Origin: Psammoneis japonica
Taxonomy: Eukaryota
DNA length: 64,000 bases
Direction of reading: 5' to 3'
Assembly: GCA_008632985.1 (NCBI GenBank)
Contig: QPGO01000062.1
Span: 310,001 to 374,000, forward strand
The notes beneath the pieces are model-generated. The model had not been told where the DNA came from, did no database searches, and was given only the letters and a program-made list of their open reading frames with translations. Of the stretch, positions 11,892 through 62,861 are shown piece by piece. Both the position numbers and the translations under genes were made by a program. Positions within the stretch are counted from its first letter, which is position 1. Each line of letters starts with the position of its first letter.

Positions 11892-12024
11892 GAAGCCGAA
11901 ATAGGTAGTATCAAGCTGACTGCTTTCTCAATCCATAAGCTTCGTAACCACACAAGTTAGGGTTACTGTACCGCAGGAATTCCTCACCCGCTGCAGCGTA
12001 CCGTAGGACTACGTACTGTAGTAA

Positions 12025-16120: not shown

Positions 16121-16146
16121 CGCCCCGACTTCGCACTATGACTCCA

Positions 16147-17670: not shown

Positions 17671-18038
17671 GATCAGTTCACAACAACAAAAAGTAAGTGT
17701 GAGACATTTGCCATTGCCATTTGCCACCAACATCATCATCTGACATCGCCGTTCGCCGAGCGAATGAATCGCTCGAAATGCCGATCAATGACGTCATTTT
17801 TCCCGTGCGATTCTATTCTAGTCGTATTCGCGATCTATCTTGTCGTGCACAAGATTCGATCCGCCACCACAAGATTATTGTTATTTCTTCTTCTGGCTTT
17901 TGTTGGAGGATTGGGTACAGTACGAGGATACGGCCGAATAGAACTTGGAAAACACGTCGTTAATACCGAGTCGAGCTTCTCGATTTAAGCTTGTTGTTCG
18001 AGGTCTGTGTTGTTTTGTAATGGTAGTAAAGGATCGAC

Positions 18039-19118
18039 TTAGGCATCCAGCTTACAATCCAAAGTGCAATTATGGCCAGTAATCGTGATGCCTTGAGGTC
18101 CCAAATCTGAAGTTCCCTTGAAGGGCGCTCCAACGTAGTAACGCTCATCTTCGTTTCGAGGCCCCAAGGGAAACTCTCGACAGGTCTTGGCGCCAAATTC
18201 AAGACAACGGAAATAGAACATGTCGTGCTCCATTGTTTTGTCCTTGACAAGAGGCCAGACGTAGTCAGCCAGAAAGCCCTGATCTTCACCGCAACAAAGC
18301 GGATTCTCACCATGGTCATCTGTGAGTGCATTTTCCATCGATCGAGTCATAGTTGTGTTGTGCCTATCAAGCAGTCCTCGCTTCATAGCAAATGTTCCGG
18401 CCATTACTTCGATATTGTGAGCTGGATGATCTCGCATTACATGAAAGAGGTGTTCCTTGGAACCCAAAAATTCATTAACTGCCATGAGCTCTCGTAGTGA
18501 AAACCGACTGTCCACATCTCGCACCAAAGTTTGCATAACGGTTGGGTCGTCCAAAGCTAAAAAACGATGCATGGCCATTCTGAACGTCGTATTATGTTGA
18601 ATACATTGTACCATTTCCACGTTGTCATGTTGGATCAACTCTTGTGTAAGCTCGGGTGACACATTTGTTCCATATATTCGAACGATCCAGTCCGGGTAAT
18701 ACTGTTTGGCTGTTGTAGCTTGGATTCTCATACCCTCCTTCACCCAGTCTGGAATATGTCCCACGGCATCGTCTGCGTTGACAGGAGCAAAGACGGCGAA
18801 ACTTATAATCTTTTTGTTCTGATTCCATGTTTGTTTTTCTCCAACAATGCGAGGGTCACAATATTCTCCGTACAGTGATTCGTGATTTGCTTCGGTTTTT
18901 GGTGACGGTGATGGTGATGGATCTCGCTTTTTTGTCGCTCGCGCTGAATCTGGCGCATCACAGTTGCATTCGATTGTTATTGTTTGGATAGGAAATAAGA
19001 GAAACTGCATCAGCGACAATGACAATGAGAATCCAAGCGTGAAAGCCAAGACGACACTACGACTTATTGCCATGCCTGATCTCGTCATTCCGCCCCAACG
19101 TGTGTCGGTGTATGCCAT
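18039..19118 (-). CDS. Type II membrane putative glycosyltransferase (RDxDSR / MRDHPxH family)
   Basis: TM anchor and the motifs KIISF, YPDWIVRIY, HRFLALDD, VRDVDSR (DxD), HVMRDHPAH and DQGFL. Confidence 0.65.
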   Translation of the reverse strand: MAYTDTRWGGMTRSGMAISRSVVLAFTLGFSLSLSLMQFLLFPIQTITIECNCDAPDSARATKKRDPSPSPSPKTEANHESLYGEYCDPRIVGEKQTWNQNKKIISFAVFAPVNADDAVGHIPDWVKEGMRIQATTAKQYYPDWIVRIYGTNVSPELTQELIQHDNVEMVQCIQHNTTFRMAMHRFLALDDPTVMQTLVRDVDSRFSLRELMAVNEFLGSKEHLFHVMRDHPAHNIEVMAGTFAMKRGLLDRHNTTMTRSMENALTDDHGENPLCCGEDQGFLADYVWPLVKDKTMEHDMFYFRCLEFGAKTCREFPLGPRNEDERYYVGAPFKGTSDLGPQGITITGHNCTLDCKLDA

Positions 19119-19199
19119 CGCGTCGACATCTCAAAGAGACCTTGCGACTTGCGAAGTTAGTTGCTGTTTTGGTTTTGAGCCTCGCATCATCAAAATACT

Positions 19200-22100
19200 T
19201 CCACGTGGAAGCAAAAGAGCCTTTTTGAGAGAAGACGAGATCCCGCCAGATCTTCGCAAACAACGGTGCTGTGACAAACAAGTCAACCAAACAAACAAGA
19301 ATCAGCGCTTCAAGACCTGTGCAAATCTCCACCAAAAATGGTGCGAAAAAGGATCACCTGTGGTCACTGCCAAACGCCGCAGATTGGCAGCAAGCGCACA
19401 CCCATCAAAAATGTTTGGGTCTGTCTCGATGTGGCAATGCAAGCCGGCTCGAGTGTCTCTTCAACAACTCATGTTTTGAACAAGGGTGTGAGGATGTTTC
19501 AGAAGGTCACAAGCTCTTTGGCAGTCTGAGATGGCTTCATGCTAAAATGGTGGGAGAGGAGAAAGTTTGTTCGTTTGTGGGTCGACACCCTGGGCCCAAT
19601 GATGGGGCATGTCGAACACTGTGCGAACATCAATGTGTCAAAGCAAAATGACAAAACACCGTTGAATGAGTTGTTGCCTCTGTTGCCAGAAGAGAAGATT
19701 CAAGTGGGGATCTTGTGGCCAGTCTCAAAGCTGTGCTTCTGGTGCAAATGACAGCCCAGGTGTGTTGACAGATCAAGAATGAGCTGCACAAATTGTCAGA
19801 GATGCTGCACCGGATGGCAATTTTGAATGTGGACAAATCTGCTTGCAGCACTTGTCACCTCTTGTCAATTCTGCTGTTCTCTTGCTGGCACATTTTGTGA
19901 GCCAGGTGATGGGGCCAGAAAACTTTCAGCTCTGTGAAAACAACACTGAGGATGAGGTGCAATCCACAGCCCACCGCCATTGCTTGTGAATGTTGGAGAG
20001 GTGGCCATTTGGCTGTTCATTTGGCTCACCTTCAACAGAGACAACAATGGAGGCCCTGTCTGACTCAGGAACAGCAACACAATTCAACCAAAAGACGTGT
20101 GGCTTGCCCAAAGAAAGTTCTCCACCTTTGTCATGAACCAACGCTCAGCCAGATTTCTCTGTTCTCAATTGGAAGAGAGTGGCTGGATGAGAAAAAAATT
20201 TTGGAGCTTGCAGCAGATTGCACATCCAAAACATGTCTTGTTTGCAATGGCACATGGGGCACATCTTCCTTCCTCCAAAGCCATGTCCAATGAGAGTGGC
20301 CCTTGGTTCATCAAGGAGGTCCACAAAAATGGGGGGCAGGGCCACTCAACTGTGCCACCATTTGACGGATGTTTTGTCACTGACAGACCAAAGTGGATGC
20401 TTTGTCATGCAACAGCATGTCCACAATCCTCTTCTTGCCAACAATGGGCACAAGTGTCATGTCAAGCTTTGCAGTTTGGCTGTTTGCACTGGTCAAGGCA
20501 GTGAGTGGGAAGCGCACATTGTTCTTGGCCGACTTTTGGTCGACTTGAATGGCAGAATGTGGCTGGCAGATTTCAACTTCACACCCATCCTCCATGATCC
20601 AATCCAGGCAGCCAATGAATCAAACTGAACAACCAAGGGTCTAAAAACCCATTTTGAACTTCACAAAAAAAGCTTGGAGATGGCTTTGAAGTCAATGATG
20701 GTGCTGCAGACAGTGATGTGATTGCAATGATCTCCGGTGGTTCCATTGACCGGAAATTGAGCACCTCCAGTGATGAGAAGTCATCAACCACTGGCTGGAA
20801 TCTCTCCCTGAGAATGGCAAAATTGCAGCTCTTCTTTGGTGTGTTTGAGCAAGCTGGTGCAAGAACTGAGAAGGTCAGGTTTTTGCCACATCATTGAGCT
20901 GCAACAAGGACCGGACAGTGCTGGTCATTGTCAATGTCATCTGAACAGGAATTTGATGCAAACAATCTGCAGCTGTGCATTCTGCTCAGCAGGCAAGGGC
21001 CAATGGGCCAAATTTCTGGTGGGACAAGTGTGCCTGAATTCCACAACCTTGCAAGCAAGATTCGATGAATTTTTATAATGCAAAAGTGGAGCCACTGAAG
21101 TTGTGAAGTCCATCAGTGAGATTGCAGCCATGTTGTCTCCAACCCCAAAAGAAAAATTTGTGTCAAATGCCTCAAAAGTGGTGAAACCTTGCAAACAGCA
21201 ACTGCAGCAATGGCTCCACATGGCATTGGGTGGCCATGCTTTTCAATGAACACCAGTCCACTGCTTTGCTGTTGTCGGCTGTTCTGCATTTTCAACACAG
21301 GCTTGGCTCCTTTGCCAGACCAGAGTGGCACCTCACTTGTCTTTGTCATCATGTCCATTGCTGCCTTCTTCTTCTTCTTCTTCTTCTTCTCCATTGTTGT
21401 TCTGTTTTTCTTCCTTTTCCTCTTCCTCACTGTCCTCATTGTTGCTGGAAAGCTTTGGCATTGCTCATGTTCTTGCCTCCATCTGCATTGTTTTTTTTGT
21501 TGGTTTTTGCTTCCTTGCCCTTTTCATCTCTCTCCCTCCTCTTCTTGCCATTGCTGCACCCCATTTTGAGCTGCGCTCCTTCTGTGTGCAAGGGCACCAG
21601 TGTTTTTCCCTTCTCCTTTTGTTCCCTTTGTCATTTCCCTCTCAAATGTTCTCGCCCTTCATGGCCTTGTGCTCCCAAATCTTCCAGTGGTTCTGCAATG
21701 TCATCAGCCCCCAAGCCTCATTGTTTGCCACAGTTGGCTCTGCAGCCTTGGCATTTCCAGACTCCACCATCTTTCTCCACACTGCAGTGCTCTTTGTGAA
21801 TTTTAGAACATTGTCATGGAGCCATGTGCGTGCTTCCTTGTTGGTCTGCTTCTCACACACAATGGTGCCCACTGTTTTGTCAATCTCTCTCCTCAGAGAT
21901 TGGTGATCTCCAGCAGCTCCCGCCTGCAACAACACCGCCACCAACCTTGGGCTGTTTGGCAGATCTTCAGAAGCCACCTTCTTCCTTTTTTCTTCCTTGG
22001 CATTGCCTCTGCAGGTTGCAATTTGTTGCAGACTTGTGCTGCAGCAACTGTTTGTGCAGCTGATTCTGACAAGGAGGATGACCACCACTGCATTTTTTCA

Positions 22101-22540
22101 AACCTCTTAAATTTGAGATGCTCTCACCAGCTTTTCTTTTTTTGGCAATCAAATGTTCCATTTAAACACAACTCACAACTGCAAGCAGACATTTTCAACA
22201 TTAAATTTGTTGTCAATGTGCATGTGTCGTCAATGTGCATGTGTCCAAAACCAACCAAAATGCACACACAAATGTTTGCACCTGTGAAAGTTTTTGTTTG
22301 TGGAGTGAACTGGTTGCACACAGCCTTCCCGCCATTTTCACATTTTCTTCTCAATGTGGCACCACCACAATTTTCTTCCAACCCAATTCTTCCAACTCAT
22401 CTTTCTCCAAATGGGCAAAGCTGAAATTGCTGCACCACCCATGGTGAGAACAACCAGTGATGTGATCAAACACACTTCTCACCTCACCAACACAATTCAC
22501 AAAATGCTCCATGTGGGGTTGTGACAGAGTCTCTCTTTCT
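19200..22540. other. Decayed repeat-derived block depleted of both TpA and CpG; includes a minus-strand remnant (about 21400-22090) of an 'EAxxL...N.W' family protein
   Basis: Very few TA or CG by eye. TVANNEAWGLMTLQNHWKIW resembles SVSSEAFALPVHLNCC in the 31151 ORF. (TTC)n at 21366-21391. Confidence 0.55.
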
Positions 22541-22549
22541 TTTGTTTGT

Positions 22550-25500
22550 GCTCATGCATGTGATGGCACGCAACGTGAATCACGTGCACGAAGGACAAAA
22601 CATCGCGACCGGGCCAGCGAAATTTGCCCTCATGCATGACCTGCTGCAGGGCGATGCTCTGACGTCATTTGACAATGCCGCTGACAAGCGTGCATCCCAA
22701 ACCAACGCTGCGTGCGCAGCATGCGTCGCGAAGCTAAAGGAAAGTGTCTTCCCACATGGGGCAGCACCACTGCAGAAGCGTCATCTGTGGCGCTTCATGT
22801 GCAAGCCCGCAGAGGTTTCTGCTCGTGACTGTTGAAATTAACGGCTGTGTCTCTCAGTTTCCACCCGTGACGGAGGATGGAGAAACACCGGCACCATTGC
22901 CCAATGACGAACTGTGCGACATGTTCGAGTGCGGTGTGCCGAATGCATGGCAGAAGTTCATGACGCTGCAGAATTTTGACCCGCTGGCGCATGCCATCGC
23001 CGAATTTGTGCAGTTCTGTGAGCGCGCCGAGCAGGTCGAGCTTGCCGAAGGCAACCGCGACCAACACACTGGGGTCCCACATGAGCGGGGACGCAGAACG
23101 GACAGTTCTGAGTTGTTGATCACGACCCAACCACGACCCAACCGAACACCCACGTGAAACGTGTCAAGACTGGACAATCCAGCAACGGAGGCAGTGAGCC
23201 CAATGCAAAACCTCGGAATGAGGAAGACGCTGGTGCTCTCATCGGATCGAAGGTCGAGGAGTTCTTTGCCAACGCTCAGAAAAAGCGCAAGGCCCGTGAG
23301 GAGGAGCTTGGTCACTTCCGCAACCTCAACTTGAGTGATTCCGAAGACTCGGACACTTGCCGACACGATGCAGGTGGTTTTGACACACCAGATGAATGCA
23401 CCAATGAACAACTGAACTGCCATCGCACACGTGTTGCAGGCCAATCCCGCAAACGAGTTAAAAAGACTCATCTTGCTCCAATCTTGTTCACAGCTGTGAA
23501 TGCCAAACATGGCAAGGGCAAGACTCAAACTGTCAAGGCACTGCCAGACAGTGGCGCCAGCAGCACTCCACTCGACAGTCGATGCTGCAAATGTCTGCCA
23601 AGCCATTCAACGGCTGAGACAAACTGGGCCATGGCAGCAGGCTCGTTCAGTGTGTCCAACGACTGCACCGTTAAATTTCGGTTGCCAGAATCATCCGAAA
23701 CTGCAGAACTCAAGCATGCCATCCACGCACACAATGGAAAGTTGGGCAAGTGCGATGTGATCATTGGACGCGACACTCTGGAGACGCAAGGCGTTGACAC
23801 TGTCTTCTCCAAACAGATGACAGAGTGGCCATTGGTCAATGGAGAAGTGCCAATGAGGCACGCAGATGCTGCAGTGGAAACCTCCTTCTGTCTTCAAGAT
23901 CCAGAAGCCTTGTCTTCGGAAACCGACCGGATTTCGCAGATGCCAAGCACGCGCCGGCCTGCCTCGAGGACATGACGCAAGGGGCAACAGGACTTTCTAC
24001 AGTTCAACAAAACGACCTTTTAGCACCATTGAAACGCCATGAGTCCTCATTTGATGGGACATTGGGAGAATGGAAGGGAGAACCCTACCATGTCCAACTC
24101 AAGGAGGGTGTAGAACCATGCCACGCTCGTCCGTATAAAGTACCTCGTGCGTACGAAGCTACGCTACGTAAAGAAGTAGAACGCCTGGTACGTATCGGTG
24201 TTCTCAAACGCGTTAACCGATCCCAATGGGCAGCTCCATCATTTATCATACCGAAGAAAGATTTAACGGTACGCTTTATTAATGATTTCAGAGAGCTGAA
24301 TAAACGGATCAAGCGATTGCCTTATCCGATTCCTCATATCCAAGATATGCTACTTAAGCTCGAAGGCTTTATGTGGGCTACATCGCTGGATTTAAATATG
24401 GGCAATTATCATATCCGATTGGATACTGATAGTAAGAAGCTCTGCACGCTCATCTTCCCGTGGGGTAAGTATGAGATGCAGGTATTGCCCATGGGATTAT
24501 GTAATTCGCCAGACATTTTCCAAGAACGCATGTCAGGCTTATTTGAAGATCTATCGTTCGTTCGAACGTACTTAGATGACCTTCTCGTCGTGACGAAAGG
24601 CACCTATGAAGATCACCTCAACAAACTTGAAGAAGTTTTATTGAGGGTCCAGAAAGCAGGACTAAAAGTTAACGCAACTAAATCTCACTTCTGTCAAACC
24701 CAATTAGAATACTTGGGTTATCTGGTCAACAGAGACGGACCTACCTAATAAAGCATTAAGCGAATCGCGACCCCAACCAATAAACGCGACCTACGTTCAT
24801 TTATTGGTATGGTGAACTACTACCGCGACACGTGGATTAGACGTTCTGAAGTCTTGGCTCCGCTAACACGACTCGTAAGCGAGACTGTTAAGTGGGAGTG
24901 GACGTCCGTTGAAGACGAGGCGTTCGAAACCGTTAAACGGGTAATATCGGATGATGTCTTATTATCACATCCTGATTTTAATAAACCCTTTGAGATACAT
25001 ACCGATGCCTCTAAATATCAATTGAGAGCAGTTATATCCCAAGATAATAAACCTATCGCCTTTTACAGCAGAAAGCTTAATAATGCGCAATTAAATTATA
25101 CAACAACGCAGAGAGAATTACTCGCCATTGTGGAGACGTTGAAAGAATTTCGAACGATTCTCCTTGGTCATCGTATAATCATATATACTGATCATAAAAA
25201 TCTTACGTACAAAGTGTTCAATACCGAGCGCGTTATGCGCTGGCGGTTAATATGCGAAGAATACGGTCCCAAATTACGCTATGTTAAAGGTGCCCATAAC
25301 CTAGTCGCTGACGCTCTTAGTCGCCTTCGACTAGCACCCAGCTTGCCTTCCGAGGCTAATCCGGATGTAAAAGACACTCCATCGAGTCGTCCTTTGCATG
25401 AAGCTTTTAATGCAGACGCGCAAGATGAGCCATCTCTGCCCATCAGCTTCAAGCGCATTCAAAAAGCACAACAAAAGGACAAGCGCCTGCTCTCAAGAGC

Positions 25501-27010
25501 TGGGGACTCGTCCGACCACTCCATTCGCGCGCATCGTGGGGGAGGGTCATCACGACAGTTAATCTGTCATAAGGACAAAATCGTAGCACCACAGTCATTG
25601 CAGGTTCCGCCAACTGAATGGCACCATGGGACACTGTGTCATCCAGGTGAGACACGTGCGGAAATGTCTGTTGCCCAGCACTTCTGTTGGCCCAGCATGA
25701 GGTCTACGGTGCATTCTACGTGCGTTAAGTGCGATCGATGCCAGAAGACAAAACGCCGAACGCAGCATCATGGGAAGCTGCCAGAAAAGGTTGCAGAGAT
25801 GATTCCATGGGAGACTCCATGCACAGACATGACAGGGCCATGTAAAATTCAAAGACGAGAAAAGGACACCTTGCAATTGTGGGCAGTCACAATGATTGAC
25901 CCAGCAACCGGGTGGTTCGAGATTAAAGAAGTGTCCACAAAATGCGCAGACGTCGCAGCAAACGTCGTGGAACAAACGTGGCCATGCAGATGTCCGTGGC
26001 CAACCCAGGTGGTTTGTGACCGTGGGACAGAATTTATGGCAGAATTTAGCCAGATGATTAAAAATGACTGTGGGATTTTGAAGAAACCCACAAGTGAACG
26101 GAATCCACAGGCAAATGCCACAGTGGAACGTGTGCACCAGACACTTGGTGACATGGTGCGTTCCTTTCCAGTGCAGGACATGGAACTGGACGAAGATGAC
26201 CCGTGGAGTGGCATCCTCTCCACAGTGGCCTTCGCTGTTGGAGCTGCGGCACACACGACCACGCATGCAAGTCCCATGCAATTGGTCGTCGGACGCGATG
26301 CGGTTTTTGTCTGTTGCCCATCGTGCCAAGTGGAAGCACATAGAAACCAGAAAGCAGAAGCTTGTCCACTTAAACAGCAAGCGTGAAAATCAGAAACGCA
26401 AGGAGCATCAATGCACCGCAGGGCAATTGGCACTTGTCAAACAGGAACAATCCTCTAAATGCGGTTCTGACAGCTGTGCAGGACCCGCCAGAGTTGTCCG
26501 TGTGCATGACAACGGCACGTTGCGTGTCCAGAACGGAGCGCTGACAGATGCGTGCAATCTGTGGCAGATTGTGCCCTGTCACCAGCAAGACATTCTGTCA
26601 CTTAACGGCCCTGATCATGGGGGAGTGTGCAGCATGCCTCACCACTGGACAACACGGCGAGACCGTGCACAAGCCTCTTGCACGTGGCAATGCAGCATTG
26701 TCAACACGCACCTGGGAAGCACGACCACAGGAGGGCGTGGCTCCAGGTCTTGGGCAGTTCCAGAAGGATGCCAAGAGAGCGTCCGTGTGAAGCACACTAG
26801 CCCGTCGTCTGGCCCACGATGGCAGCGTGATTCCACACGATGACATCACTCGTGCATGGCGCGTGATGGCTTGATTCGCACGATCCACAATGCGAACGCA
26901 CGATCGACCCAATGCGATCCAAATGCGAGCGAATGGGGATTTGGCAAGATTCCCTGTTCGCACGATCCCATTTTCTCTTCTCTAAACTGGCTCATAATTT
27001 TCACAACGAC
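22550..27010 (+). mobile_element. Ty3/gypsy LTR retrotransposon; 5'-truncated, frameshifted, with hypermutated ends
   Basis: Domain order is gag (LLQGDALTSF), protease (ALPDSGAS), RT (DFRELN, LPMGL, YLDD), RNase H (TDAS, RELLAIV, YTDHKNL, ADALSR) and integrase (HHGTLCHPG..C..C, CDRGTEF, VERVH). PPT CATGGGGGAG at 26616-26625, then a probable 3' LTR to about 27010. No 5' LTR seen. Confidence 0.93.
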
Positions 27011-27659
27011 AAAGTCGCAACACATCTTCTTTTTCAGCACCCAGCACACACACAGGGCACATGGACAGTTGAAGGGTTCAGTGCCTTCTTCCTTGTTTTG
27101 CAAACTCTTTGTGAGGAATTTTGCAACTGGAAAACCCCACTTTTTTGCTGTTGAAAATTGTGCTGCAAGTTTGGGACATGCATTTCATGCAAAAATGGGC
27201 ATTTTTTCACCCACATCTGGGACACCAACAATCCAGGTGTCGCACTGGCATTCAAGATTTCTTGAAATAAAACCCGACATTTTCTCCCTTCAATCCAAGA
27301 TGATCGCGCTGATTTGACAAGTCAGCTTTTCTGAAATGTTCAACAACAAACATCCATGTTCCTCAATTTGGCCATTTGCCCCCCCATCCGACAAGCCTTG
27401 TGTGTGTGCTCAACTCCATTTTAATTTCTGGTTTGTGTGTCAATCAACTTTCTGGATCAAAATCGCCGCCCACATCTGTCAATCTAGACTCCAATTGTTT
27501 TCTCAATTTTCTCTCCCTGCCCATTCCATCCTTCCTCCCCGTCCATCCGCACGTTGCATCTCCATGTTTCCACCCTCACCATGTCCCCAAGTGATTGTTG
27601 TTGCACCCACTGTTTGCTTTCGATTCTCTCATCAACTCCTTTGTCTGTGTGCATCGGCC

Positions 27660-27790
27660 ATGTCGTCTGATGGTCTTGTTTGTCCATGGTGCAAACGAAC
27701 CGGTTTCTTTTCCGAACGTGGCCTCAGCAGGCACATCGCAACTAACTTCTGTGATGCACCTGACAGACAGACTGCCATTGTCAAAACATC
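27660..27790 (+). pseudogene. C2H2/C2HC zinc-finger remnant
   Basis: CPWCKRTGFFSERGLSRHIATNFC in TpA-depleted sequence. Cys and His are inflated in this region, so this needs caution. Confidence 0.4.
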
Positions 27791-27982
27791 ACATGGGGCT
27801 GTTTGCGAAAAAAACACCTGTGGTGCCCACAACAGATGGGCCGCCGTTGGCAACACATGTTTGGCAAGAAAGCCGTTTTTGTTGCAAAGTGATGGGTGCG
27901 GACTTTCGCTGTGTTGGGTCTGTTCCACTTAAAGAAAAAGACTGGGCACCATTTGATTTGGTAGAACAGGCAACTTCAGAGA

Positions 27983-28753
27983 ATGGCGCGGAAGTGTTCT
28001 GTGAACGGATGCCGGAAATTTGCCCATTGGCCGACAACGTCATGCCAGAAACATGGCAAGTTGCCAACACGCCCGGGCGAAATGAAATCTCATGTCGTCA
28101 AGAGTGAGAAGGTGGGGTCCAAAGAAAGAGAGCACCAGGAAAGAAAAAAAGGCCACTTGCAAAAATTCAAAACACCGCCACACCTGCTCAACAAGACAAC
28201 AATGCTTGCAAACAAGGCACCAAGTGGGAAGGGAGAAAAGGAAGGACACCGTTTTGTTGGCGAGTTCACCATTGACAAAAAGGAAAAGGCGGAAGGCATT
28301 GGGTTGGCAGAAAAAATGTTGGAGTTAATTCCTGGCTTTCCCCCAGCGGGTGATTCAAGCAGAAAGACATCCCGGCACACAGCAGCAAACGCTCCTGCTT
28401 CAAATTCAAGATCTGGCTTCTGGTCAAAGGGGGAAATTCATCGCGATTGCGTGGAAACAAAATCATTGCCTGGCAACAAAATTTTCACCATGTTTCCATT
28501 CCTCGATGACACGACGGAGCACAATGGTGCAGTGGAGACATGGCCGGACAGTTGTGAGGTGACATTGAAGGAGAAGGAACGCGAAAGACAATTGGTTGGG
28601 TTGGGTTTGGAAAAACAATCACTGGTTGGAGAAGCAGGCACTGCATTTGTTTTTGATGCAAGAATGTTGCACCAAGCTTTGCCTGACAAAACGAACTCGG
28701 ATCGAAGGAACATGGTGTGTCCAGCCCACAATTTCGACATGGTGAGCATGTGA
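27983..28753 (+). pseudogene. 2-oxoglutarate/Fe(II) dioxygenase (PhyH-like) remnant
   Basis: IHRD (HxD), FLDDTTEHNGAVETWPDS, GEAGTAFVFDARMLH (distal His) and KTNSDRR (2OG-binding Arg) in the canonical order. No Tyr in 256 aa. Confidence 0.7.
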
Positions 28754-28863
28754 ACACAGCAAGCGTGTGAACAAGCATGTGTTGGAATGCAAAACTGGCA
28801 AAGCAGTGAGTTGACACAGGCACAAAGTGGGTTTGTGCAAATGGCCAATTGACAACGCATTGC

Positions 28864-29600
28864 TCACACAGACGACAGCCACATTGCAAACAAAGTGAAA
28901 TTGCAAAGTTGCCCACTTTTGGCATGCTTGAATTTGCGTTTGATGTCAGACCCCAGGTCGTTCCCAGTGGAATGCCCAGTCTCCACGGCTTCGTCTCTTT
29001 TCTTGGTGCACTTGTGAAGCAGGTGCCCATCGACACTGCCTCCCCACGACAGATTGTCTGGATGGGCAGGAACAAAGAATGCTCCATGCCTCCATTTGTG
29101 CGTGTGAACACAAAACATCAGGTCCAGTGAAATGACAACAGTGCCTTCAGGACACTCATTGGACAGCATCTCCTCGAGTTGGTTCTGTGTCGCGTTGTTG
29201 TCAAAAAGCATTTGCCCATTGCAGCTGTTGAAGAAAATCTTCAAGTTGTTCAGACGGTGCAACCGACGAACAGCATTGTCTTCGGAGAGGAAGTCCTGAT
29301 TGATCAGGGTCGGGAAGCGACTGGTGTTGTTGTGCCATGTGGCATCACACCACTGAGAGCCAAGATCATGACGGGGACGGTGGAACTCGATGCTGCAGGC
29401 ATTGCAGGCAGGAACAAGCAGATGACAGGCAATCGCAAAACCGCCAACACCACCACCAACGTCGAGGAAATTAAAACGGCGACGCGTTCCAGCCCCAGGT
29501 GGGAGCTCGTAGTACTGACGTGTGACAACAATAATTTTTATCATCCGTCGTATGTTTCGTACGTAGATTTCTACGTGTGACATTTAAAAAAAATTGTCCA
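28864..29600 (-). pseudogene. Class I SAM-dependent methyltransferase remnant, DOT1-like
   Basis: FLDVGGGVG (motif I), SIE, QDFL, IFFNS and PEGTVVISL parallel DOT1 DLGSGVG/GIE/GDFL/IFVNN/GxxIVS. Confidence 0.6.
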
Positions 29601-30689
29601 GACTCGCTGTTTTGCGAAGCCCCAGACGTTTTATATAACAAATTTATAGAAACAATAATGCGCCAGTTACATTCTTCAATGTCTGAAGAATGTAACTGGC
29701 TAAGTAAAAAATGATGTACTTCAATCATGTGCGAGTTTGTGCGTTCGCAAAATTGCCTCATTTTCTGTTGGCGATCATTGACATTCTAATTACCGTATAA
29801 TTTTACTACGGAGCTCGCACGTAGAAGTCTACGGGCCCAATGTCACACGGATTCCCACCTACGTCTGGAACGCGTCCGGCTTCGAATTTGTGCTGCAAAG
29901 AGAGCGGGGTTACAAATGACCTTGGCGGAGAAGGCAAAGCTTGCCGCACCACCGTGTGATTCCACACCACCACCAGCAAAACAACCAATTTGATCATCAA
30001 TTGGCGGCATGTGATTGCAACAGAGGGAACACGCGTTCCCATGATGGGAACGACTCACGACAACCACATCTTGGCGACAATGACACACTTCAGTGGACAT
30101 CAAAGTGGACCAGAAAATTTGGGCAACAGAGAGAGCAACTGGACAAATGTGGCATCGGGGAAGTAGAGGGAATGACCTGTTAAGACAGGGACAACAAACA
30201 GGAGGTTTGACATGACTTGGTGCACCAAAGGAAGCAGATGTTGCATCAACAAGGAAGCGCAATGCATGCACTGACATGAGCAGATGCAACACATTGTTTG
30301 GCATTGATTTGAATGACATGGCAATCTTCATTGGTGCACTGGATTGGCTGAAAAAGGCACACAATTCAAAACAGTGAAACGTTGACAGAAAAGCAAACAT
30401 GGGGTTGGGAATGAGAACTCAAAAATGACACAAAGACCTGTTTGAATCGAGAGAGGACACGCAAGCAACGACAAAACCAAGAAAATCACATGCAAAAGTG
30501 CACTCTTTTTGCAACTTGCCTTTCACAAAGTGACAGGAAAGGACAGAAGTTCCAAAAAAGAGGAAGCCATTGGGAAGGCAAAAAAAAATGGAGGATGCGG
30601 TTCTCACAGGAGCGACGGAGGGAGGAAGTGCAGCTTCCAGCGGCAAGTGAGATTGAGAAAGGACATGACAAAGAATTGCTGATGAGCTG

Positions 30690-31843
30690 ACATGATTGTT
30701 GGATTGATCTGTGTGGTGTCACATGAAGTCACCATGAGTCCTGCGGTGGCGGCCTTGTTGCGTGCACAAAGAAACGAACATGGGGAATTGAACAGATTCC
30801 AGCGTGCAGGTGGCGATTCAAGTTTGGTGGTGACTCCCACAGAGGGATGTCTTGTGTTGGATCGTGCACCAGCAGTGAGCAAGAAATTGACAGCATCGAT
30901 GTTGACTGAGGTTGTCAATGAGAGTGTTTGGCCATGTTGCAAGTTCACAATCTTCGATCATGAACTCACCGTGGGAGGAGATTACATGAAATTGGTTCTG
31001 CAGGAGTCAAGGAGCATGGCGTCTTCACCGGAGAAGTTCTGGGAAGAATGCAAAGAGGTGTTCAGGACCAAACTCAACCGAAAGAGGAATGATGTGCAGG
31101 ACAACATTGGGAGGAGAATGACAGGCAAGCAGACGTGTGTGTGCCGGTGATTGTGTTGGAGGCGATTGTCTGACGGGATGAGTGTCTCTTCCTTTGCTGT
31201 TGTCTGTGCAGTTGCTGCTTTAGAGGGATCGCTGGTGGCTTGCAAAGACTTGACAAATGGAAGAAATGACAAGGACACACACGCGTGGTTCTTGGAAACT
31301 GTGGTGCCGACGGTGGTGGGACAAGCGCAGTTTGGTGGAAGCACAACCGACATGCTTCAGGAATGGCTTTCGGTTTCGTCGGAGGCGTTTGCTCTGCCAG
31401 TGCACTTGAACTGCTGCAACAAGGTGAAGGACACGGCAGAGAAATTGGAAAAGGAAGAAAACATTGCAAGGAGAAGAAAGCCAACTGTGAAAGATGCTGC
31501 TCCTGCAAAGTGCACAGTGCAGGCGGCGGGGGAATCGGCAAAGAGGAACCAAGGATGGAGCAAGGAGGCGATCGAGAAGTGCAATGATCTGTGTCAGTGG
31601 GTGGTGAAAGACAGAGAGAACAACCAGGGATTCGGTGCATGGTTCAAGGAGAGAAGGCGAGAGAAGACAAACTTGTCTCAGGAGGAAAACAAGAAACGCA
31701 AAAGAGAGGAAAAAAGAAAGGAGAGAGAGGAAGGATGGGCGGCGCCAATGGGAGAGGACCTGCCATTGCAGGCAGTGGCTGCAGGCAACGGAGCGGTGGC
31801 AAATGCTGCAATGGCCGCCAACCAAACTGGTGTGCAAACTTAA
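30690..31843 (+). pseudogene. Repeat-associated protein remnant (EAFAL...KYT...GWS...YN.L family) with a probable intron near 31125-31225
   Basis: FRTKLNRKRN, SEAFALPVHLNCC, KCT and QGWSKEAIEKCNDLC read as a coherent family once Cys/His are reverted to Tyr. GCAAGC at 31125 looks like a converted donor. Confidence 0.55.
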
Positions 31844-32844
31844 TTTGAAACAAACAATGATGTCCAGACAAGTGAAAATTAAAAAAAACATTCTGCGATG
31901 CGGTTTGGATGCAACAACGTGTGGCAATTGGGAATTTGGATTTGAAAACGGCACAGCAATGAGATAAAATGTAGGACGAGTTGGCAGAAAAGGAGGGTGG
32001 ATTACAAGCAGCAACATTTGTGTCAAAAGAACGAGAAACCCCAAATGTTAATTGGGGTGCAGGTCTGCATTATGTGAAAGGAATGATCACACTTAAAAGT
32101 GAGAAGCGATTTGGGTTTTAGAAGGTCACAAACTTGCGCAGTTCTCACATTATGTTCAAGGAGAGAATTGGCTCACAAGTTGACAAAAATCTGGCATTGA
32201 AGTCAAGAAACACCCAGATCATGGCAGACGGTCAGACCCAGATTGTTGGCATCCCAGATGCATGTGCACACCTGAGTCTGGAACAAATCTCATGCTCACA
32301 ATCTCGAAGCAGACTCGCTTGTGCATTCAACTCCATTGTCCAACTGCCAACCTTCCTGGGGGGGGGGGGGGGGGTCAATTTGAAGAATTCCATCCTGTCA
32401 CATGTCCAAATGCCTCTTGGGCTGTCACAAACTGCTTCATGGCGGAAGAACAAAGCCAGCTTCCTGGCGTCAAGAATGGCTCTCCTTTTTTGTCCATCAC
32501 AAATCCACAAGCACCTCCTGAGCCGGCACTCATGCTGAGTGGTCCACACCTTCCATTGTCATCCATTCTGTGGGTTGACAAGCCAACACTCAATGTCTTT
32601 TTCAACTCACAAATGTCTCTCTTGTCCAAGGTCAATCGTGCATCATCTCCCCTTCATCCTGTGGCACACTCATCTCTCATCCCCACTGCTCGTCCACATT
32701 GTGGTTTTCTTCATTGACGCAATGCATCTCAAGAGCCATGTTCGGCAATGTCCCTGACATGACCAACAGCAGGCTCAGCACCGAGGCACAGCTCACATGC
32801 ACCGAGGCACAGCTCACATCCAGGTGAGTTGTTCCTTCATCAGA

Positions 32845-33175
32845 AACACTTTTCGGGAACCATTCCTGCAGAAATTGGGTTGCTTGGAAATTTGAGCAAG
32901 TGCGTGCAACACCTCATGATGACATCCCAATTAGGCTGCCCTCCTTGGCTTGTGACCTGTTTTGACTCCTGTGGTTTGTGTGCTTCCAACGCACAGCTGC
33001 TTTGACTCCAGGCAACAACGCGCTTGCAGGGACCATTCCAACAATGTTTGGTTCCATGACAAACTTGGGTGAGAGCAAAGAAATTCTAAAGCATTTGATG
33101 GACTTTGACAGACGTTTCCTCACTTCTAACCTCGTGTTACTTCATTCTCCATCAGAACATTTGCACCTTTTGCCA
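32845..33175 (+). pseudogene. Leucine-rich-repeat gene fragment with one LRR per exon
   Basis: FSGTIPAEIGLLGNL | ALTPGNNALAGTIPTMFGSMTNL | EHLHL. A 72-nt exon is bounded by CAG and GTGAG, and the first donor reads GCAAGT (32896). Confidence 0.75.
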
Positions 33176-33706
33176 CAAATTTATTCGCTGGAGTGTTTGA
33201 ATGTCCGAGCTTCATTGAGAAATGCTGTGTCTCCTGTTCACCCGACTCCACGGCTTGCCACAGCCTCTGAGCACCCCTGCCCCCATTGTCTACGCTCCGA
33301 TGCTAAATGTTTTTGCCAGTTTTGTAAATGCATGGTTTGAGACAGATGAGTCCATTTTGCGTCTCATCCTGCATTCTTTGTGTACCGGTACACCGGGCAT
33401 GCGAGTCCCTCGAAAGGTGACGCCGCGGAATTGATTTGAACAGTCTATCATAGATTCTAAACTACGACAGCAGCTTAAGTCTCATGAAGAGTTGTACTCA
33501 CCAAAGTCATAAGACCTGGACCTTTTATCTACAAGATACGTAATAAGCGTTGTTTTAACAAAACAGACAGACATTACATATAATTATATTGTGTCAGAAC
33601 ATGTTCGATGAACTTGCGGATCCTTTCAACTGTATCATCCAAAAGAGGAGAACACCACCTCCACCGATTCCTCAAGCCCACAAATGAAAGTAAAATATAA
33701 CCCCAC

Positions 33707-34522
33707 TTAGGTGCGCCAAAACCAACTCAAATATCCAGAAGAAGCTGGTTCATTCTCTGCTCCTTTCTCCTCCTGGGCTTCAACATCCGAGTTGGCATCG
33801 TCGGAAGACTCGTTTTCCTCACCTTTCGCATCATCACTCTTTTCAGCGTCCTTCGCGCTCTGGTCTTCTTCTTGTTCTTGAGGCGCCAAAGAACGGCTCG
33901 TGCGTCCTCGATTTTTGTAAAGCTCACGTTTCTCCTGGTAGCTTTGGCGCATCCGACTGAGCGCAAGCTGAAGGCACAAAAGGCCCATGACAAAATATAG
34001 GCATCCAAACCCAATAATGCTCCACGCGACAGCCTCGAGCACAGAACTAAGGAGGTCGTAGTTCTCAAATTCGTCGTTATCAGGCTCTGAGGTTTCATTC
34101 TCCGCCAACCCAATCACTCCGATAAAGGTGTAAAACAAACCTTTCGTGATCCAATTATGCAGAAGTATCGACTCGCGAACCGTGGAAGGCCATTCCAACT
34201 CGAGGAAAACCACAAACACGCATAGCAGAATGACATAGGTACGAAGTACATATCCAGTTGGAGAATTCTTGTAGTATACCATCCCTACAATCTGACCTGC
34301 TGCCATCCACAAGGCCACAAGAACCGTCAAGATGGACACAACAACGAAGAATTGGTGAAAGCAGCTACGCCTCGGTTTTTCCAGCGGTATCTCTGTGTTG
34401 TTCTGGGGTTCTTCGTTCTTTTTACTTTCTGACGCAGAAGAAGTCCCCGCCGCCTGTGAGGCCGTCTTCGACTGGTCTCCCTCAGTCTCAGTTTCTGGTT
34501 TCTTTGTAACCTTACTTTTCAT
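33707..34522 (-). CDS. COPI-associated / TVP15-like 4-TM Golgi membrane protein
   Basis: Intact ORF with normal Tyr content, four hydrophobic helices, FLELEW and NWITKGLFYTFIG motifs, and an acidic tail. Confidence 0.7.
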   Translation of the reverse strand: MKSKVTKKPETETEGDQSKTASQAAGTSSASESKKNEEPQNNTEIPLEKPRRSCFHQFFVVVSILTVLVALWMAAGQIVGMVYYKNSPTGYVLRTYVILLCVFVVFLELEWPSTVRESILLHNWITKGLFYTFIGVIGLAENETSEPDNDEFENYDLLSSVLEAVAWSIIGFGCLYFVMGLLCLQLALSRMRQSYQEKRELYKNRGRTSRSLAPQEQEEDQSAKDAEKSDDAKGEENESSDDANSDVEAQEEKGAENEPASSGYLSWFWRT

Positions 34523-35109
34523 GGTTGCTAGAATTCTTTTCTCTACAAGCCTGTCCCCGTCGAGTATTTGTTGCTGATGCTGATGCGCGCTCTGCGTTGG
34601 TCAAGCTACGTGATGAGGCGCTGCTGTTCCTCGGAAGACAATGCGAAAGCGGAATGTAACGCCATTGTGGCGATTGCGTCGGCGAACAGATCACGCATCA
34701 CGCGCATCCGGGATCGATCCGGGAACCGGGACTGTCGCGTGGATGACTGCCAGACGTTGCTGGAGGGGAAAATGAGAATGACGTCAGCAGGGGCTTGATT
34801 GACGGACACTGCGACTGTAGCTTTTCATTCTGTTTCGATTTTCGACCCTTTATTGTTTGTTGTCATTGTTGGGTTGTTGGGACAATTGTTTGGAAACAAC
34901 CGACCCTTTCAGCAATGAAAGGAAACTCAGCATTGGCGGGTGTCTTTTTGTGCATTGTTCTAATTGGTTGGAAAACCACGTCATTTGTTCCTTCTTTTTT
35001 GATGAAATGGGCAGCTGGGGAGGCATTGGTGCTGCCGCTGCTGCTTCTCTGAATCCAACGATGACAACTGGGGTGCATCTGCAGCCCAAATGTGATGCGC
35101 TCTGACCAC

Positions 35110-56410: not shown

Positions 56411-56781
56411 GGAGTGTTCTTGCCGACCCTCGAGGGAACATCTTTTCCGGGTTTCTTGAACTGGGACGTCACCGTGCGTCGCCGTGCGAATGTCTTGGCG
56501 CCACCTGACGTCACCCGACCTGCAAGGAGCCATGCGAACCCACCCTCAGAAAACGCTCCCTCTTGCAGGTTCAGGGGTGAATCACAACCCGTTTCACCTG
56601 CAAGAGGATTCATTCCCTCTGGTGCAAATTCTGCGCATTTTTGACGCAGTGAAACGCTTTCAGGTGGAATGAGAACTCCGCAACAAAAGCAAAACGCGCC
56701 GCCATCGCAACAACAAACACATCAATTGATTGTCACGACGAGCATCACAACCAAGCCACAGCATCCATGCAGCACATCATC

Positions 56782-57833
56782 ATGTCTTCTGAACACCCAC
56801 AGCATCACAAGTTTGCATGGGCTTTGGAAGAGTTGAAGAAAGCTTCCAGATCTGGTGGTTCTGGCACAAACAATGGAGCAGGACAGTCGGCCCCCGGTGC
56901 CAGCGTCATTTCTGCATCCAGGCCAGCCCCTTCTACGACTTTGGATGGGGAAGAAGCAGCTCTCATGGAAATCACGAATCTCTCAATTGATCTCACAGAG
57001 GATGCAACAGTTGACTTGATCAACGAGGAGAAAGGAGTGACAAAAAAGCCAAAGCTTCCAAAGTTGCTGCAACCCGAGAACGAGAGCTTGTTGTGCGAAT
57101 TGCTCTTCATCATGCAAACAAAGAAAGCACATCACACATCAAGCACATTTCGAAAGATGCGACCACCAAGTCAGTCTGGCAGCCAGTTCTGGACGAGTTC
57201 TACGATGGACCTGATGGCCCTGCTCGCGGCCATTTCAAGCCAACTGGTGAGTTTGCGCATCGCACTTTTCAACAAAAATGCTGGGGCATTGTGGACACGT
57301 TGGCTGAGCGTGCTTTAAACAAGGAGGAAGGGCATCGCACCCCTTGTGAGATCTCTGCATTGGCCATGTGGAAGGAGCAGAAAGATCTGACAGAAAAGGA
57401 CGAAGAATCCAGGTCGGAAGCGACGGCAAGGAAGGAGGAAGTGGCTGCTGCGAATGCTTCAAGCGAAGCCAAACTCAAACTCACACCTCCAAAACCATTC
57501 AGCAAGAAGCGTCCAGTCCCAAGCATTGCTGTCACTCCCTCTGAGAGACCTGATGGAAAAGTGCGGGGGGAGCCCAGGTCGAAGGACCGTGTGCTGGATT
57601 TGGAAAAAACCCAAGAGAAGGCAGACAAAGTCTTGAGTGACATCAAGGCTTTCCTCCCATCCAGGGAGGAGATTGGAGAAATCAACAAGCGCAAGAAGAG
57701 GAAGCTTCAGTTGGGCACAATGGCGTCCGTAGCAACAATGATCTCGCAGGGCAGGGATGCGGGTCTCGACGTCTCAAGGTTTCAAGAGCATTGCAAGCAG
57801 CTGCAAGACGAGCATTTTAAAGATCAGGCCTGA
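56782..57833 (+). pseudogene. Accessory ORF2 of the transposon (putative DNA-binding partner), frameshifted near 57130
   Basis: Two overlapping ORFs inside the TIRs, convergent with the transposase. Role inferred from the two-gene architecture of PHIS elements. Confidence 0.55.
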
Positions 57834-57884
57834 AAAAGATCAGGCTGTGCTTGGCATAAATTAGGATGCATGTTTCATGTCGCC

Positions 57885-59132
57885 GAGCACTTTCTAATGG
57901 TAGTAATTTTGTTTCCATAACTTGAGCAGATCAGAATTCTGATGTGCACATCCGAACGCCGCCGCAAAATTGCGTGCCAAAAATTCCCAGTCCGTTTTCA
58001 TGAACTGCCGGCAGGCGTTGCTCCAGAAGTAATGGGAGTTTTGCAACAATGAACAGTGTTAATGCCATCTGCAGAACGAGTACTTTCTAATGGTAGCATT
58101 TTTGTTTCCATACCTTGAGCAGATCAGAATTCTGTTTTATATATCCAAATGACACCGCAATTGCGCGCCAAAAATTCCCAGTCCGTTTTCATTAACTACC
58201 GGCAGGCATTGCTCCAGAATTAATGGGAGTTTTGCAACAATAAACAGTGTTAATGACATCTACAGAACGAGTACTTTCTAATGGTAGTGTTTTTGTTTCC
58301 ATACCTGAAGCAGATCAGAATTCTGTTTTATATATCCAAATGACACCGCAATTGCGCGCCAAAAATTCCGAGTCCGTTTTCATTAACTACCGGCAGGCAT
58401 TGCTCCAGAATTAATGGGAGTTTTGCAACAATAAACAGTGTTAATGACATCTACAGAACGAGTACTTTCTAATGGTAGTGTTTTTGTTTCCATACCTGAA
58501 GCAGATCAGAATTCTGTTTTATATATCCAAACGACACCGCAATTGCGCGCCAAAAATTCCTAGAGTCCGTTTTCATTAACTACCGGCAGGCGTTACTCCA
58601 GAAGTAATGGGAGTTTTGCAACAATAAACAGTGTTAATGACATCTACAGAACGAGTACTTTCTTATGGTAGTATTTTTGTTTCCACACCTTGAGCAGATC
58701 AGAATAGTCTTTTATATATATCCAAACGACACCGCAATTGCGCGCCAAATTCCTGGTGCGTTTTCATCAACTAGGCGTTACTCCAGAATTAATGGGAGTT
58801 TTGCAATAATAAACAGTGTCAATGACATCTACAGAACGAGTACTTTTTAATGGTAGTATTTTTGTTTCCACATCTTGAGCAGATCAGAATAGTCTTTTAT
58901 ATATCCAAACGACACCGCAATTGCGCGCCAAATTACTGGTGCGTTTTGATGAACTAGGCGTTACTCCAGAAGTAATTGGAGTTTTGCAACAATAAACAGT
59001 GTTAATGCCATCTTCAGAACGAGTACTTTCTAATGGTAGTATTTTTGTTTCCATGCCTTGAGCAGATCAGAATTCTCTTTTATATATCCAAACGAACGCA
59101 GTTGCGCGCCAAGTTGCTAGAGTGCGTTTTCA
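57885..59132. repeat. Tandem array of 6 full units plus 1 partial unit, 183-193 bp each, inside the transposon
   Basis: GAG(T/C)ACTTT starts at 57885, 58078, 58269, 58460, 58653, 58838 and 59021. Confidence 0.96.
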
Positions 59133-59201
59133 GGCAATGGAAGTGCCAGGAGATCTGTGACATAAAGATACAAGAAGCTACATTCTATACTAAGTTTGTA
59201 T

Positions 59202-60650
59202 CTAATGTAAATTTAAGTAGTTTTGAATTGATGGAGGATCAACACCAAAAGTGCCGATCGCTCCAATCTGGTTATGATGAAAGCACGTGTAGCAGTTTGT
59301 TAGTAGAAAAGACACACGAAGCTGCTCGCAAGCATACGGGCTTTCATAGTAAAGCTTGAAAGGGCAGAATGTCCTGCACACGCGAAACACATTTGACACA
59401 ATACCATAGCTCCACTCCACAGTGATGCGCACTACCTTGAGCCGATAATTTTCGAGCATTTGCATGGGCGTGAGCGGCGGCACCCCGTTGTGGCCAGGTT
59501 GATGTGCGTGGAGCACACATTGTTGTTGAGCAAATCCCCGGTCTGTGTGCACCGCATGCAGCGTGCCATCTTGAAAGTGTCCTTGTTGCATGTCTGCCAA
59601 GTGCTGGTTCACGGCAGACAAGCGCTGCAAATCGGTGTCAGCTCTGGGAAACTCAAAAATCGAACGCAAATCGATGAGTGCCTGTGTTTGACGTGACAAA
59701 CAATTGCAGCACAGAACTGGCAACTTTGCACTTGCCTACGAGCTGAAGTAGGACCCCACACAATGCACAAGCCATTTGGAAAGACCACAGATAACATCTT
59801 AATTCCGTGAACGTGTTTGTAGCCCGTGCAAACAGATCGCTGAATGTCGTCCGAGTCGGGGCGCCGAGGAGCATCTACCCAGTCATCAGCTGGCCCTGTT
59901 CCAGGAGTGTTTGTTTCAAAAATTGAACAATCCATAAAGCCCATGATGTTGAATTCCCCTGGTGGACAAACAAGACCGGGGACGTTGCATGCTTGGTCAG
60001 TGTCTGGGTCAGTCCAAGCAGCCCGTTGCTTCAGTTTGCGCTCCATTGCTCTGGCGAACAACGGAAAATCATCAACCCATCTCTGAAGTGCTTCTTGTCC
60101 AATGACAGGAGCATGTCTGTCATCAAGATGCATCAAAAACCACCTGTGTCCATGCGACCACCGAGTCAAATCCCTGCCTCCAAAGCAGTCATCCACCAAC
60201 ACGGTGTTGTCGAGTCCAAGTGCCACCCCAGTCAAGGAAAACAAAAACAATTCCTCACCAGTGAATTGGCAATGATGCCCATGAGCACATGGCACAAGAA
60301 CAATGTCGGGTGGCTCAAACAAATCATGCAGCACTCTCAACTCCTCCACGTCGAATCGAGTCGTCCGTTCGGCACAGTTGTCAGAGCAATCATCGATTCG
60401 TCGGTGATGCACAGGAGAAAAGTCAATGGGACGATGCTCCTCCTCACATGTCACATCACCAATTGTCGCACTCGCATCAGCCCAAATCTGAGCCACATGA
60501 CGACACGCAAAAATGCCGCCCAATGCACGCGCAAGAGCGACGCCAAACGGATCGTCCGCATCACCAACTTGTTCTGGATCAAACAAATGCCCATTTTCCT
60601 GATTGACAACATCAATTCTGGACACGATCGAAAGCAGAGTGAGATTGCAG
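59202..60650 (-). pseudogene. DDE_Tnp_4 (Harbinger-like) transposase with a probable intron at 59735-59644
   Basis: IMGFMDCS, CTGYKHVHG (YxGYK..H), FPNG..WGP.SARR|AD, HTDRGF and VRITVEWSYG motifs. Donor reads GCAAGT. Start uncertain. Confidence 0.88.
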
Positions 60651-61038
60651 ACCATTGAATAACTGATTGAACAGAACGCATCCAGAACATCTCTGTTCTC
60701 CTCAGTGCAGATGCTCCTCGTGCGTTGAGAGACCGATCCCTCATGTTTCTGTTTGTCAGCCGCCATGCCAATTTGCGGCAGTGTCCATGGTGAAAAAGCC
60801 TTGGTTGTCTTGGCATGACACAGATCACAAGTGCAACAATGATGCAAAAGTGTTTCTCACCTTGGCGGACGAGAACACCCGCAACCCCATCGTCAAAGCA
60901 TCAAAGCGCAGGCCTCCAGGCCGCGTTGAGGGTTGAAGCTGATCGGGCCGGCGAGTCGTGATTGAGTCGAGTGTTGAAGCACGAACGGATGAGAACCCCA
61001 GACCCATGACCCGTGAGGGTCAGTGAGAACACTCTAGT

Positions 61039-62860: not shown

Positions 62861-62861
62861 A

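Follow-up and report, generated by a model that had tools for sequence, protein, structure and literature searches.

TpA-specific transition mutation of transposable elements in the diatom Psammoneis japonica, with converted arms and unconverted cores in two elements

Mobile DNA in a stretch of 64,000 nucleotides from the diatom Psammoneis japonica (GenBank assembly GCA_008632985.1, contig QPGO01000062.1, positions 310,001 to 374,000 of the forward strand; this whole stretch is called the window, and coordinates count from its first letter) has lost most of its TpA dinucleotides (TA) by transition to CpA or TpG (CA, TG). In two young transposable elements (TEs) in the window, a Ty3/gypsy-type element and a PIF/Harbinger-type (PHIS) DNA transposon, this loss covers roughly 1.5 kb at each end and leaves a TA-rich core. 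The explanation favoured here, with confidence slightly short of even, is that mutation takes place in situ, is referenced to the ends of the element and has a limited reach. The general type of mutation has already been described in another alga; the diatom host, a rule for the bases flanking the target, and the arrangement of arms and core are new here.

Expected TA counts were derived from base composition, segment by segment. Dinucleotide counts reveal long stretches that are nearly free of TA and have an excess of CA and TG, broken by three TA-rich islands with sharp edges. The gypsy element is divided into a left arm (22550-24085; 6 TAs observed for 77.9 expected, a ratio of 0.08), a core (24086-25408; 110 for 106.2, 1.04), and a right arm (25409-27010; 18 for 85.3, 0.21). 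The PHIS element has a left arm (56411-57856; 5 for 81.6, 0.06), a core (57857-59446; 107 for 141.6, 0.76), and a right arm (59447-61035; 8 for 93.0, 0.09). The third island (29477-29876; 29 for 33.0, 0.88) lies between blocks with ratios of 0.05 and 0.08. An earlier, sequence-only reading of this DNA had described a TA-free/TA-rich/TA-free pattern in the two elements; the pattern is real, and the coordinates proposed for it were accurate to within about 50 bp. Conversion is confined to mobile sequence: host segments have TA ratios of 0.53 and 0.58, and the TA-free blocks carry reverse transcriptase (RT), integrase and DDE genes.

The loss of TA is attributed to TpA to CpA/TpG transition because CA and TG are gained, conserved tyrosine codons in the arms have become histidine or cysteine codons, one unit of a tandem array has changed in the same manner, and differences between copies are dominated by transitions. 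CA plus TG reaches 1.4-1.8 times expectation in the TA-free parts, where the TA ratio is 0.03-0.21, and GC content, which is 0.43 in the gypsy core, is higher in the gypsy arms, at 0.53-0.54. Contigs from one sequencing run, the source of all contig evidence considered here, allow the window to be compared with other copies of the same families; transitions are found at 826 places (A>G 216, T>C 191, G>A 211, C>T 208) vs 134 places with transversions, of which each type accounts for 10-28. CpG counts per 250 bp, taken as equal between arms and core, are 15.6, 15.9 and 14.2 in the left arm, core and right arm of the gypsy element and 10.9, 9.6 and 12.9 in those of the PHIS element.

In converted DNA, CA and TG succeed each other at random (runs-test z, -2.6 to +2.7), with no excess of runs in the arms, and the proportion of CA to TG is alike in both arms of each element, at about 55-60% CA. 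Random order and equal proportions indicate many independent single hits on either strand. A processive attack on a single strand had been hinted at early by tyrosine codons changed to H, H, H and then to C, C, C, and by one repeat unit, and was dropped after the runs test. A one-shot attack on resected, single-stranded ends by an APOBEC-like activity is rejected on the equal CA:TG proportion in both arms; the runs test and the CA:TG counts found neither the strand-coordinated runs nor the opposite strand bias between arms expected of an APOBEC-like gradient.

Which TAs are lost depends on the neighbouring bases. Sites were sorted into RTAY (R, purine; Y, pyrimidine), in which TAY is present on both strands and loss is fast, YTAR, in which TAY is present on neither strand and loss is slow, and mixed sites, which lie between the two. 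Among the 88 TAs that survive in TA-free segments (such as 19250-24000, 25450-33000, 35000-40450 and 55750-64000), none is RTAY; of all TAs, RTAY accounts for 28-33% in host DNA, for 28-32% in both the gypsy core and the PHIS tandem array, and for 21-22% in the remainder of the PHIS core and in a miniature inverted-repeat transposable element (MITE) considered below. Survivors in older TA-free blocks are mostly YTAR. On the product side, the gain of TGY and RCA exceeds the gain of TGR and YCA. The complete absence of RTAY among the 88 survivors, taken with reverse-complement symmetry, points to the A of 5'-T-A-Y-3' as the reactive base; as judged from these counts, the target behaves as 5'-TAY-3'. 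The order of loss, with RTAY first, mixed sites next and YTAR last, can be used as a dose meter. In a wider set of survivors, 54 of 89 are TTAA, CTAA/TTAG or CTAG.

The gypsy element (22550..27010, plus strand) is CpG-normal and has Pfam matches to RVT_1, RT_RNaseH, Integrase_H2C2 and rve; the pol order of protease region, RT, RNase H and integrase places it in the Ty3/gypsy class. RT and RNase H lie within the core on the plus strand, and integrase lies in the converted right arm in the same frame. The closest proteins in the protein collection have 65% identity in a near-length search and 78% in a search at shorter length. Neither core edge interrupts the collinearity of the element: for 22 of 22 long relatives, tblastn yields one high-scoring segment pair (HSP) in a single frame, which begins no later than 24050 and extends to 26158 or beyond. 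The ends of the element are marked by steps in CpG at 22569 and 27016 and by a step in depth. A pair of long terminal repeats (LTRs) was found neither by blastn, nor with RY-coded k-mers, nor by transition-tolerant local alignment (score 37 vs a mean of 38 after shuffling). Over 26617-26917 the summed depth of contigs reaches a maximum of 62,778, 3-5 times the rest of the element, which hints at a 3' LTR, with no matching 5' repeat; some contigs skip 75-80 bp at 26904-26983.

Five of the six survivors in the gypsy left arm are in the slow YTAR context, and the sixth is a CTAC at 23998, at the core edge. The right arm is less saturated, and its survivors comprise no RTAY, 8 mixed and 10 YTAR sites. 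The core is unconverted, with RTAY making up 31 of 111 TAs, a host-like share. Of the alignment columns at which 60% or more of 20 relatives have tyrosine, those in the core retain it at 7 of 8, which bears out the earlier description of intact tyrosines in the gypsy centre; the right arm has histidine or cysteine at 6 of 7, including all five invariant columns (H, H, C, C, C). Changes of other than the TA type at well-conserved columns number about 6 of 155 in the core vs 4-5 of 95 in the right arm; since this decay is similar and CpG counts are equal, arms and core seem to be of the same age.

The PHIS element (56411..61035, transposase on the minus strand) has imperfect terminal inverted repeats (TIRs) of 26 bp. 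It is assigned to PIF/Harbinger from its DDE_Tnp_4 transposase (E 2.4e-6; 616 relatives at E<=0.001), its TIRs and a 3-bp target duplication, AGT, on both sides; a Pfam search detected no second, Myb-like open reading frame (ORF). The transposase is encoded, collinear with its relatives, at 60493-59738 and 59639-59208, and the HSP crosses the core edge at 59446 in 24 of 39 relatives. Conserved tyrosines of the transposase have become histidine or cysteine at 6 of 6 positions in the converted part and are kept at 2 of 2 in the core. The TIRs differ from each other at one site, TTG vs TCA, for which TTA is the probable ancestral form; this difference indicates that the ends of the element were converted in place after its last transposition. 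A direct repeat of 300 bp with 69% identity, TA-free in both copies, flanks the element at 56048-56352 and 61176-61476, 59 and 141 bp from its ends.

The PHIS core contains a tandem array (57884-59112) and the last ~75 codons of the transposase. The array, as called by Tandem Repeats Finder, has 6.5 copies of 191 bp with a higher-order period of 384 bp and is situated between two PHIS gene regions; the 191-bp period is close to the nucleosome repeat length. The full unit furthest to the left (57947-58137) aligns with 14 TAs of the consensus and has 7 of them changed, 3 to CA and 4 to TG, and in each of five interior units 11-13 of the 15 TAs of the consensus persist (two units have a gap at one column); no further array units were found in the converted left arm, left of ~57880. 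The sequence-only reading had called 59450-59940 partially converted. The region is more precisely TA-free at 59447-59736, followed by a partial patch of 7 TAs at 59737-59935; the survivors of the right arm comprise no RTAY, 7 mixed and 2 YTAR sites.

The arrangement of arms and core is known from the assembled sequence, in two elements (n=2). Left and right arms measure 1536 and 1602 bp in the gypsy element and 1446 and 1589 bp in the PHIS element; a range of 156 bp over four arms has P = 3e-4 under two random breakpoints per element, and cores this well centred in both elements, given the core lengths, have P = 1e-3, both calculated post hoc. Faster, non-YTAR survivors in the arms are skewed toward the core and concentrate in the inner third (19 sites, mean relative distance from the core 0.33, Kolmogorov-Smirnov P = 0.006), and YTAR survivors are uniformly placed (19 sites, mean relative distance 0.49); the position of the non-YTAR survivors indicates that dose falls toward the middle. 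On the TA-rich sides of the four core edges, 27 TAs precede the first RTAY, vs ~10 expected (negative binomial P = 0.007-0.017). Edges between TE and host have similar gradations, with zones devoid of RTAY of 200-350 bp at four of five edges and a range of 0-350 bp over all five; because of this resemblance, the core edges look like ordinary edges of a mutated domain. Residual clusters of TA in the right arms are real (P = 0.002 and 0.0004); they were considered as restored patches, which was rejected as none of their TAs is RTAY, and are read as slow or low-dose sites.

Spared centres could also be produced by replacement, in which the middle of a fully converted copy was later overwritten from an unconverted copy by homologous recombination, with no mutation since. 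One route would be gene conversion, whether ectopic or allelic; another would be ends-out replacement, with a linear cDNA or an excised transposon as the incoming DNA. In yeast, markers close to the ends of the fragment tend to be lost in ends-out replacement, and arms of equal length could arise in this way. Replacement fits the all-or-none step and the zero dose in the cores, as well as the unconverted MITE if the process is now silent, and donors are ample: summed depth of the gypsy family is ~8,300-20,000 vs ~51 for a unique junction contig, which corresponds to hundreds of copy-equivalents (by bin, 11,600-13,800 for the core at 24209-25412, 8,300-15,250 to the left, and 17,600-20,700 to the right). 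Restoration from a donor should be blind to site class, however, and none of the 19 non-YTAR arm survivors is RTAY (0.64^19 ~ 2e-4). The core edges are graded like ordinary TE/host edges, CpG counts and non-TA decay are equal in arms and core, and it would take chance to place all four breakpoints at 1.45-1.6 kb, unless they are set by resection. Nor is the gypsy core pristine; it has a copy-specific lesion at 24740..24753 (plus strand), consisting of a 5-codon deletion, a scrambled stretch and two in-frame TAA codons, and also a G>R change at an invariant glycine. Replacement of the core is thus judged somewhat unlikely.

The same lesion bears on the integrity of the assembly, in which an assembler or gap-filler might have switched in mid-element to an unconverted paralogue or to the other haplotype. 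Such a mosaic would be favoured by the high repetition of these families; in addition, only 0.47 of the 31-mers sampled from the gypsy stretch are present in the sequencing run, and the assembly has a gap of three Ns at 62276-62278, the sole gap in the window, inside a TA-free, CpG-poor block. Among the contigs listed, those that reach furthest across the gypsy element have lengths of 239-402 bp and derive from diverged copies, and none that differs little from the window spans a core edge. The sequence of the core, however, is not that of the majority, since 17 of 17 contigs have C at 25357 (T in the window) and 15 of 15 have G at 25288 (A in the window). The lesion in the gypsy core is private to this copy, and other copies differ there by insertions and loose ends at 24741-24754. 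In addition, the edges are graded rather than abrupt, one edge falls inside a half-converted tandem-repeat unit, and converted copies, being unique in k-mer space, should assemble unaided. An assembly mosaic is therefore considered unlikely.

The third island had been presented as a spared centre at about 29500-29830. It is real as a feature of composition, but it is a nested, very-high-copy MITE, a separate insertion (29481..29876, without assigned strand; 396 bp) with TIRs and a flanking duplication of 4 bp, CGGC, and is unconverted throughout. In contigs from other copies of the repeat around it, 29476 is followed directly by 29877; 400 bp are left out, and 4 letters are shared. The MITE itself has a summed depth of 149,037 vs ~3,400 in its flanks, and 29 contigs continue past 29876 into unlike sequence. 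The proposal that mutation works inward from element ends over a limited distance is thus partly supported: it fits the gypsy and PHIS elements, with arms of 1446-1602 bp and an inward fall in dose, and loses its third example.

Older repeat DNA that is TA-free and CpG-poor extends from 19250 to 22500, left of the gypsy element, and similar DNA is found at 27011-33000, 35000-40450 and 61036-64000 (no strand is assigned to these blocks). TA ratios in these blocks are 0.035-0.08, and CpG is 2.7-8.2 per 250 bp vs 14-16 in the gypsy element and host DNA. The arms of the young elements are TA-free yet CpG-normal and the old blocks are CpG-poor, which suggests two clocks, with TA lost much faster than CpG decays. 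CpG is lowest, at 2.7-3.2 per 250 bp and a ratio of ~0.2, in 19250-22500, 35000-40450 and 61036-62750; the young elements have 10-16. Between two TA-free blocks lies a host segment of 1.85 kb (33100..34950, no strand assigned) with a COPI-associated-like ORF, for which the Pfam COPI_assoc match is weak and below the gathering score; this segment is unconverted, with 18 RTAY among 65 TAs, the host level.

These two exceptions, the MITE and the host segment, decide against spread from flanking silenced chromatin, the other source of mutation that the sequence-only reading had offered. Old TA-free neighbours would in that case nucleate a state that creeps ~1.5 kb into adjacent DNA, which suits the position of both young elements in old TA-free, CpG-poor DNA. 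The MITE, though, is embedded in TA-free DNA and has escaped conversion over its whole length, the host segment keeps its RTAY sites with TA-free blocks on both sides, and the graded zone at the five TE/host edges is just 0-350 bp; spill-over from neighbouring chromatin is highly improbable as the cause of the arms. With the MITE and host segment considered, what remains is a signal linked to the termini of the element itself, which acts on elements of sufficient age.

Host-like fragments are also found in the TA-free blocks. One is a piece of Peptidase_M3 (36298-36702, plus strand, E 3e-23), and the other a weak PhyH or 2OG-Fe(II) oxygenase-like ORF (27965-28753, plus strand, E 7.5e-5); both could be captured or duplicated pieces, and a 2OG oxygenase would be of interest should conversion proceed by thymine oxidation. 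Duplicated fragments of this kind would be expected among the targets if recognition depended on pairing with a homologous partner, as in fungal repeat-induced point mutation (RIP). Arms would then be converted and cores spared if these partners were derivatives with internal deletions, alike to the element at the ends and lacking its core. Such derivatives are common for DNA transposons, and the sharp TE/host edges with leakage of a few hundred bp resemble those of RIP. By contig depth, however, the gypsy core is today as repeated as its arms, and the agreement in arm length between two unrelated families would have to be fortuitous; furthermore, a single-copy viral insert is hit in the alga Bigelowiella natans, according to the main sections of a recent preprint (Mettrop et al., bioRxiv 10.64898/2026.01.13.699255). 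Partner-limited recognition is decidedly unlikely.

Targeting from the ends of the element has difficulties of its own. It is seen in only two elements, and the statistic for symmetry is post hoc; the ends of the gypsy element are set by CpG and depth steps (+/- ~30 bp) and not by LTRs. The step from saturated to zero dose takes less than 100-350 bp, which is steeper than simple distance decay, and the left edge of the PHIS core is non-monotonic, with TAs kept at 57857-57918, converted at 57947-58050, and then kept again. At 396 bp the MITE is within reach of any end-based ruler and is nonetheless unconverted, so it would have to be very young, or the process would have to be off at present. 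Finally, no spared centre is seen in the older TA-free blocks, 5-6 kb in length, which implies either that the core is converted later or that these blocks are made of short fragments.

With these points taken into account, the favoured explanation may be set out as follows. Transposon DNA would be struck in place, over many generations, by a TpA-specific transition process that turns TA into CA or TG, randomly on either strand. The targeted base would be the A of 5'-T-A-Y-3', such that RTAY vanishes first and YTAR lingers. Targeting would operate by domain, with domain edges graded over 150-350 bp; in the two young, CpG-normal elements the domain would extend ~1.45-1.6 kb inward from each terminus, and the dose in the core would be essentially nil. 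The targeting signal would be set from the element's own ends or junctions, with limited reach, and not by spill-over from flanking chromatin. Adenine deamination and thymine oxidation are candidate chemistries, and a small RNA or a chromatin mark is a candidate signal.

With regard to chemistry, thymine oxidation at TpA would give the same products as adenine deamination. The natural substrate of tRNA adenosine deaminases is a UACG anticodon loop, and editing of the ADAR type favours G on the 3' side, at odds with TAY. Hyperediting by ADAR through an RNA intermediate was rejected, as the DNA transposon is converted too, including its TIRs, and the 3' preference is for a pyrimidine. TadA/ADAT2 and TadA-derived editors act on an A preceded by T or U, as is the case here, and for one TadA variant, editing in a 'YAC' context has been described (PMC13109818, in the part of that article drawn on here).

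A search of full-text literature for TpA to TpG/CpA hypermutation returned the B. natans preprint alone, and none in diatoms. In this chlorarachniophyte, integrated viral DNA undergoes exclusively TpA to TpG/CpA transitions, on both strands; two integrated viral regions mutate ~1000-fold faster than background, as measured de novo in mutation-accumulation lines, with mutations accumulating over generations, TpA-poor clusters are enriched for DDE and RT genes, and an ADAT2 homologue is proposed as the enzyme (main sections of bioRxiv 10.64898/2026.01.13.699255). P. japonica is similar in that A to G and T to C transitions occur at TpA in integrated mobile sequence and host genes are spared. It differs in that the host is a diatom (a stramenopile) and not a rhizarian, and in that loss of TA in the TEs is near-complete; the 3' pyrimidine preference and the arm/core geometry found here are unmentioned in the preprint's main sections, although its supplements may show the spacing.

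Fungal RIP is likewise a defence-like hypermutation that saturates repeats by dinucleotide-specific transitions, with sharp edges at the repeat boundary. RIP makes TpA from CpA, whereas TpA is destroyed here and GC rises; the RIP signature of TpA excess with CpA/TpG deficit in repeats is absent from this window, in which the sign is opposite. A precedent for treating the edges of an element differently from its body is RNA-directed DNA methylation dependent on Pol IV in Arabidopsis, described as acting on short TEs and the edges of long TEs, with interiors handled differently (PMC4977677, in the part drawn on here). That pathway deposits methylation and not mutations, so that on this account the likeness is one of geometry only.

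Elsewhere in the window, an intact, intron-less fusion of UDP-glucose pyrophosphorylase and phosphoglucomutase (1055 aa; 2196-5360, minus strand) matches MMETSP transcripts at 86% identity and proteins of Seminavis (80%), Cyclotella (79%), Fistulifera (78%) and a bolidophyte (73%). Its nearest named relatives are thus diatom proteins, and the host genes are diatom-like. A direct duplication of 570 bp with 75% identity (10413-10985 and 11322-11879) overlaps an EF-P-like ORF (11199-11888) and has normal TA.

Taken at its fullest extent, the proposal is that diatoms have a genome defence that edits TpA, is specific for TAY and is licensed from the termini with a reach of ~1.5 kb, by which long insertions would be disabled at both ends while their core remains pristine; this wider proposal is tentative. 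If true, it would describe an edge-directed mutator that measures distance, for which there is no described counterpart. If the reach of ~1.5 kb holds genome-wide, recognition would be tied to termini or junctions and not to whole-element homology or neighbouring chromatin. The TAY rule provides a concrete biochemical signature with which candidate enzymes can be screened. Loss of TA also removes TAA and TAG stops together with tyrosine codons, so gene prediction and TE annotation are misled in such genomes. The occurrence of so rare a type of mutation in both a diatom and a chlorarachniophyte suggests that the system is widespread among marine algae.

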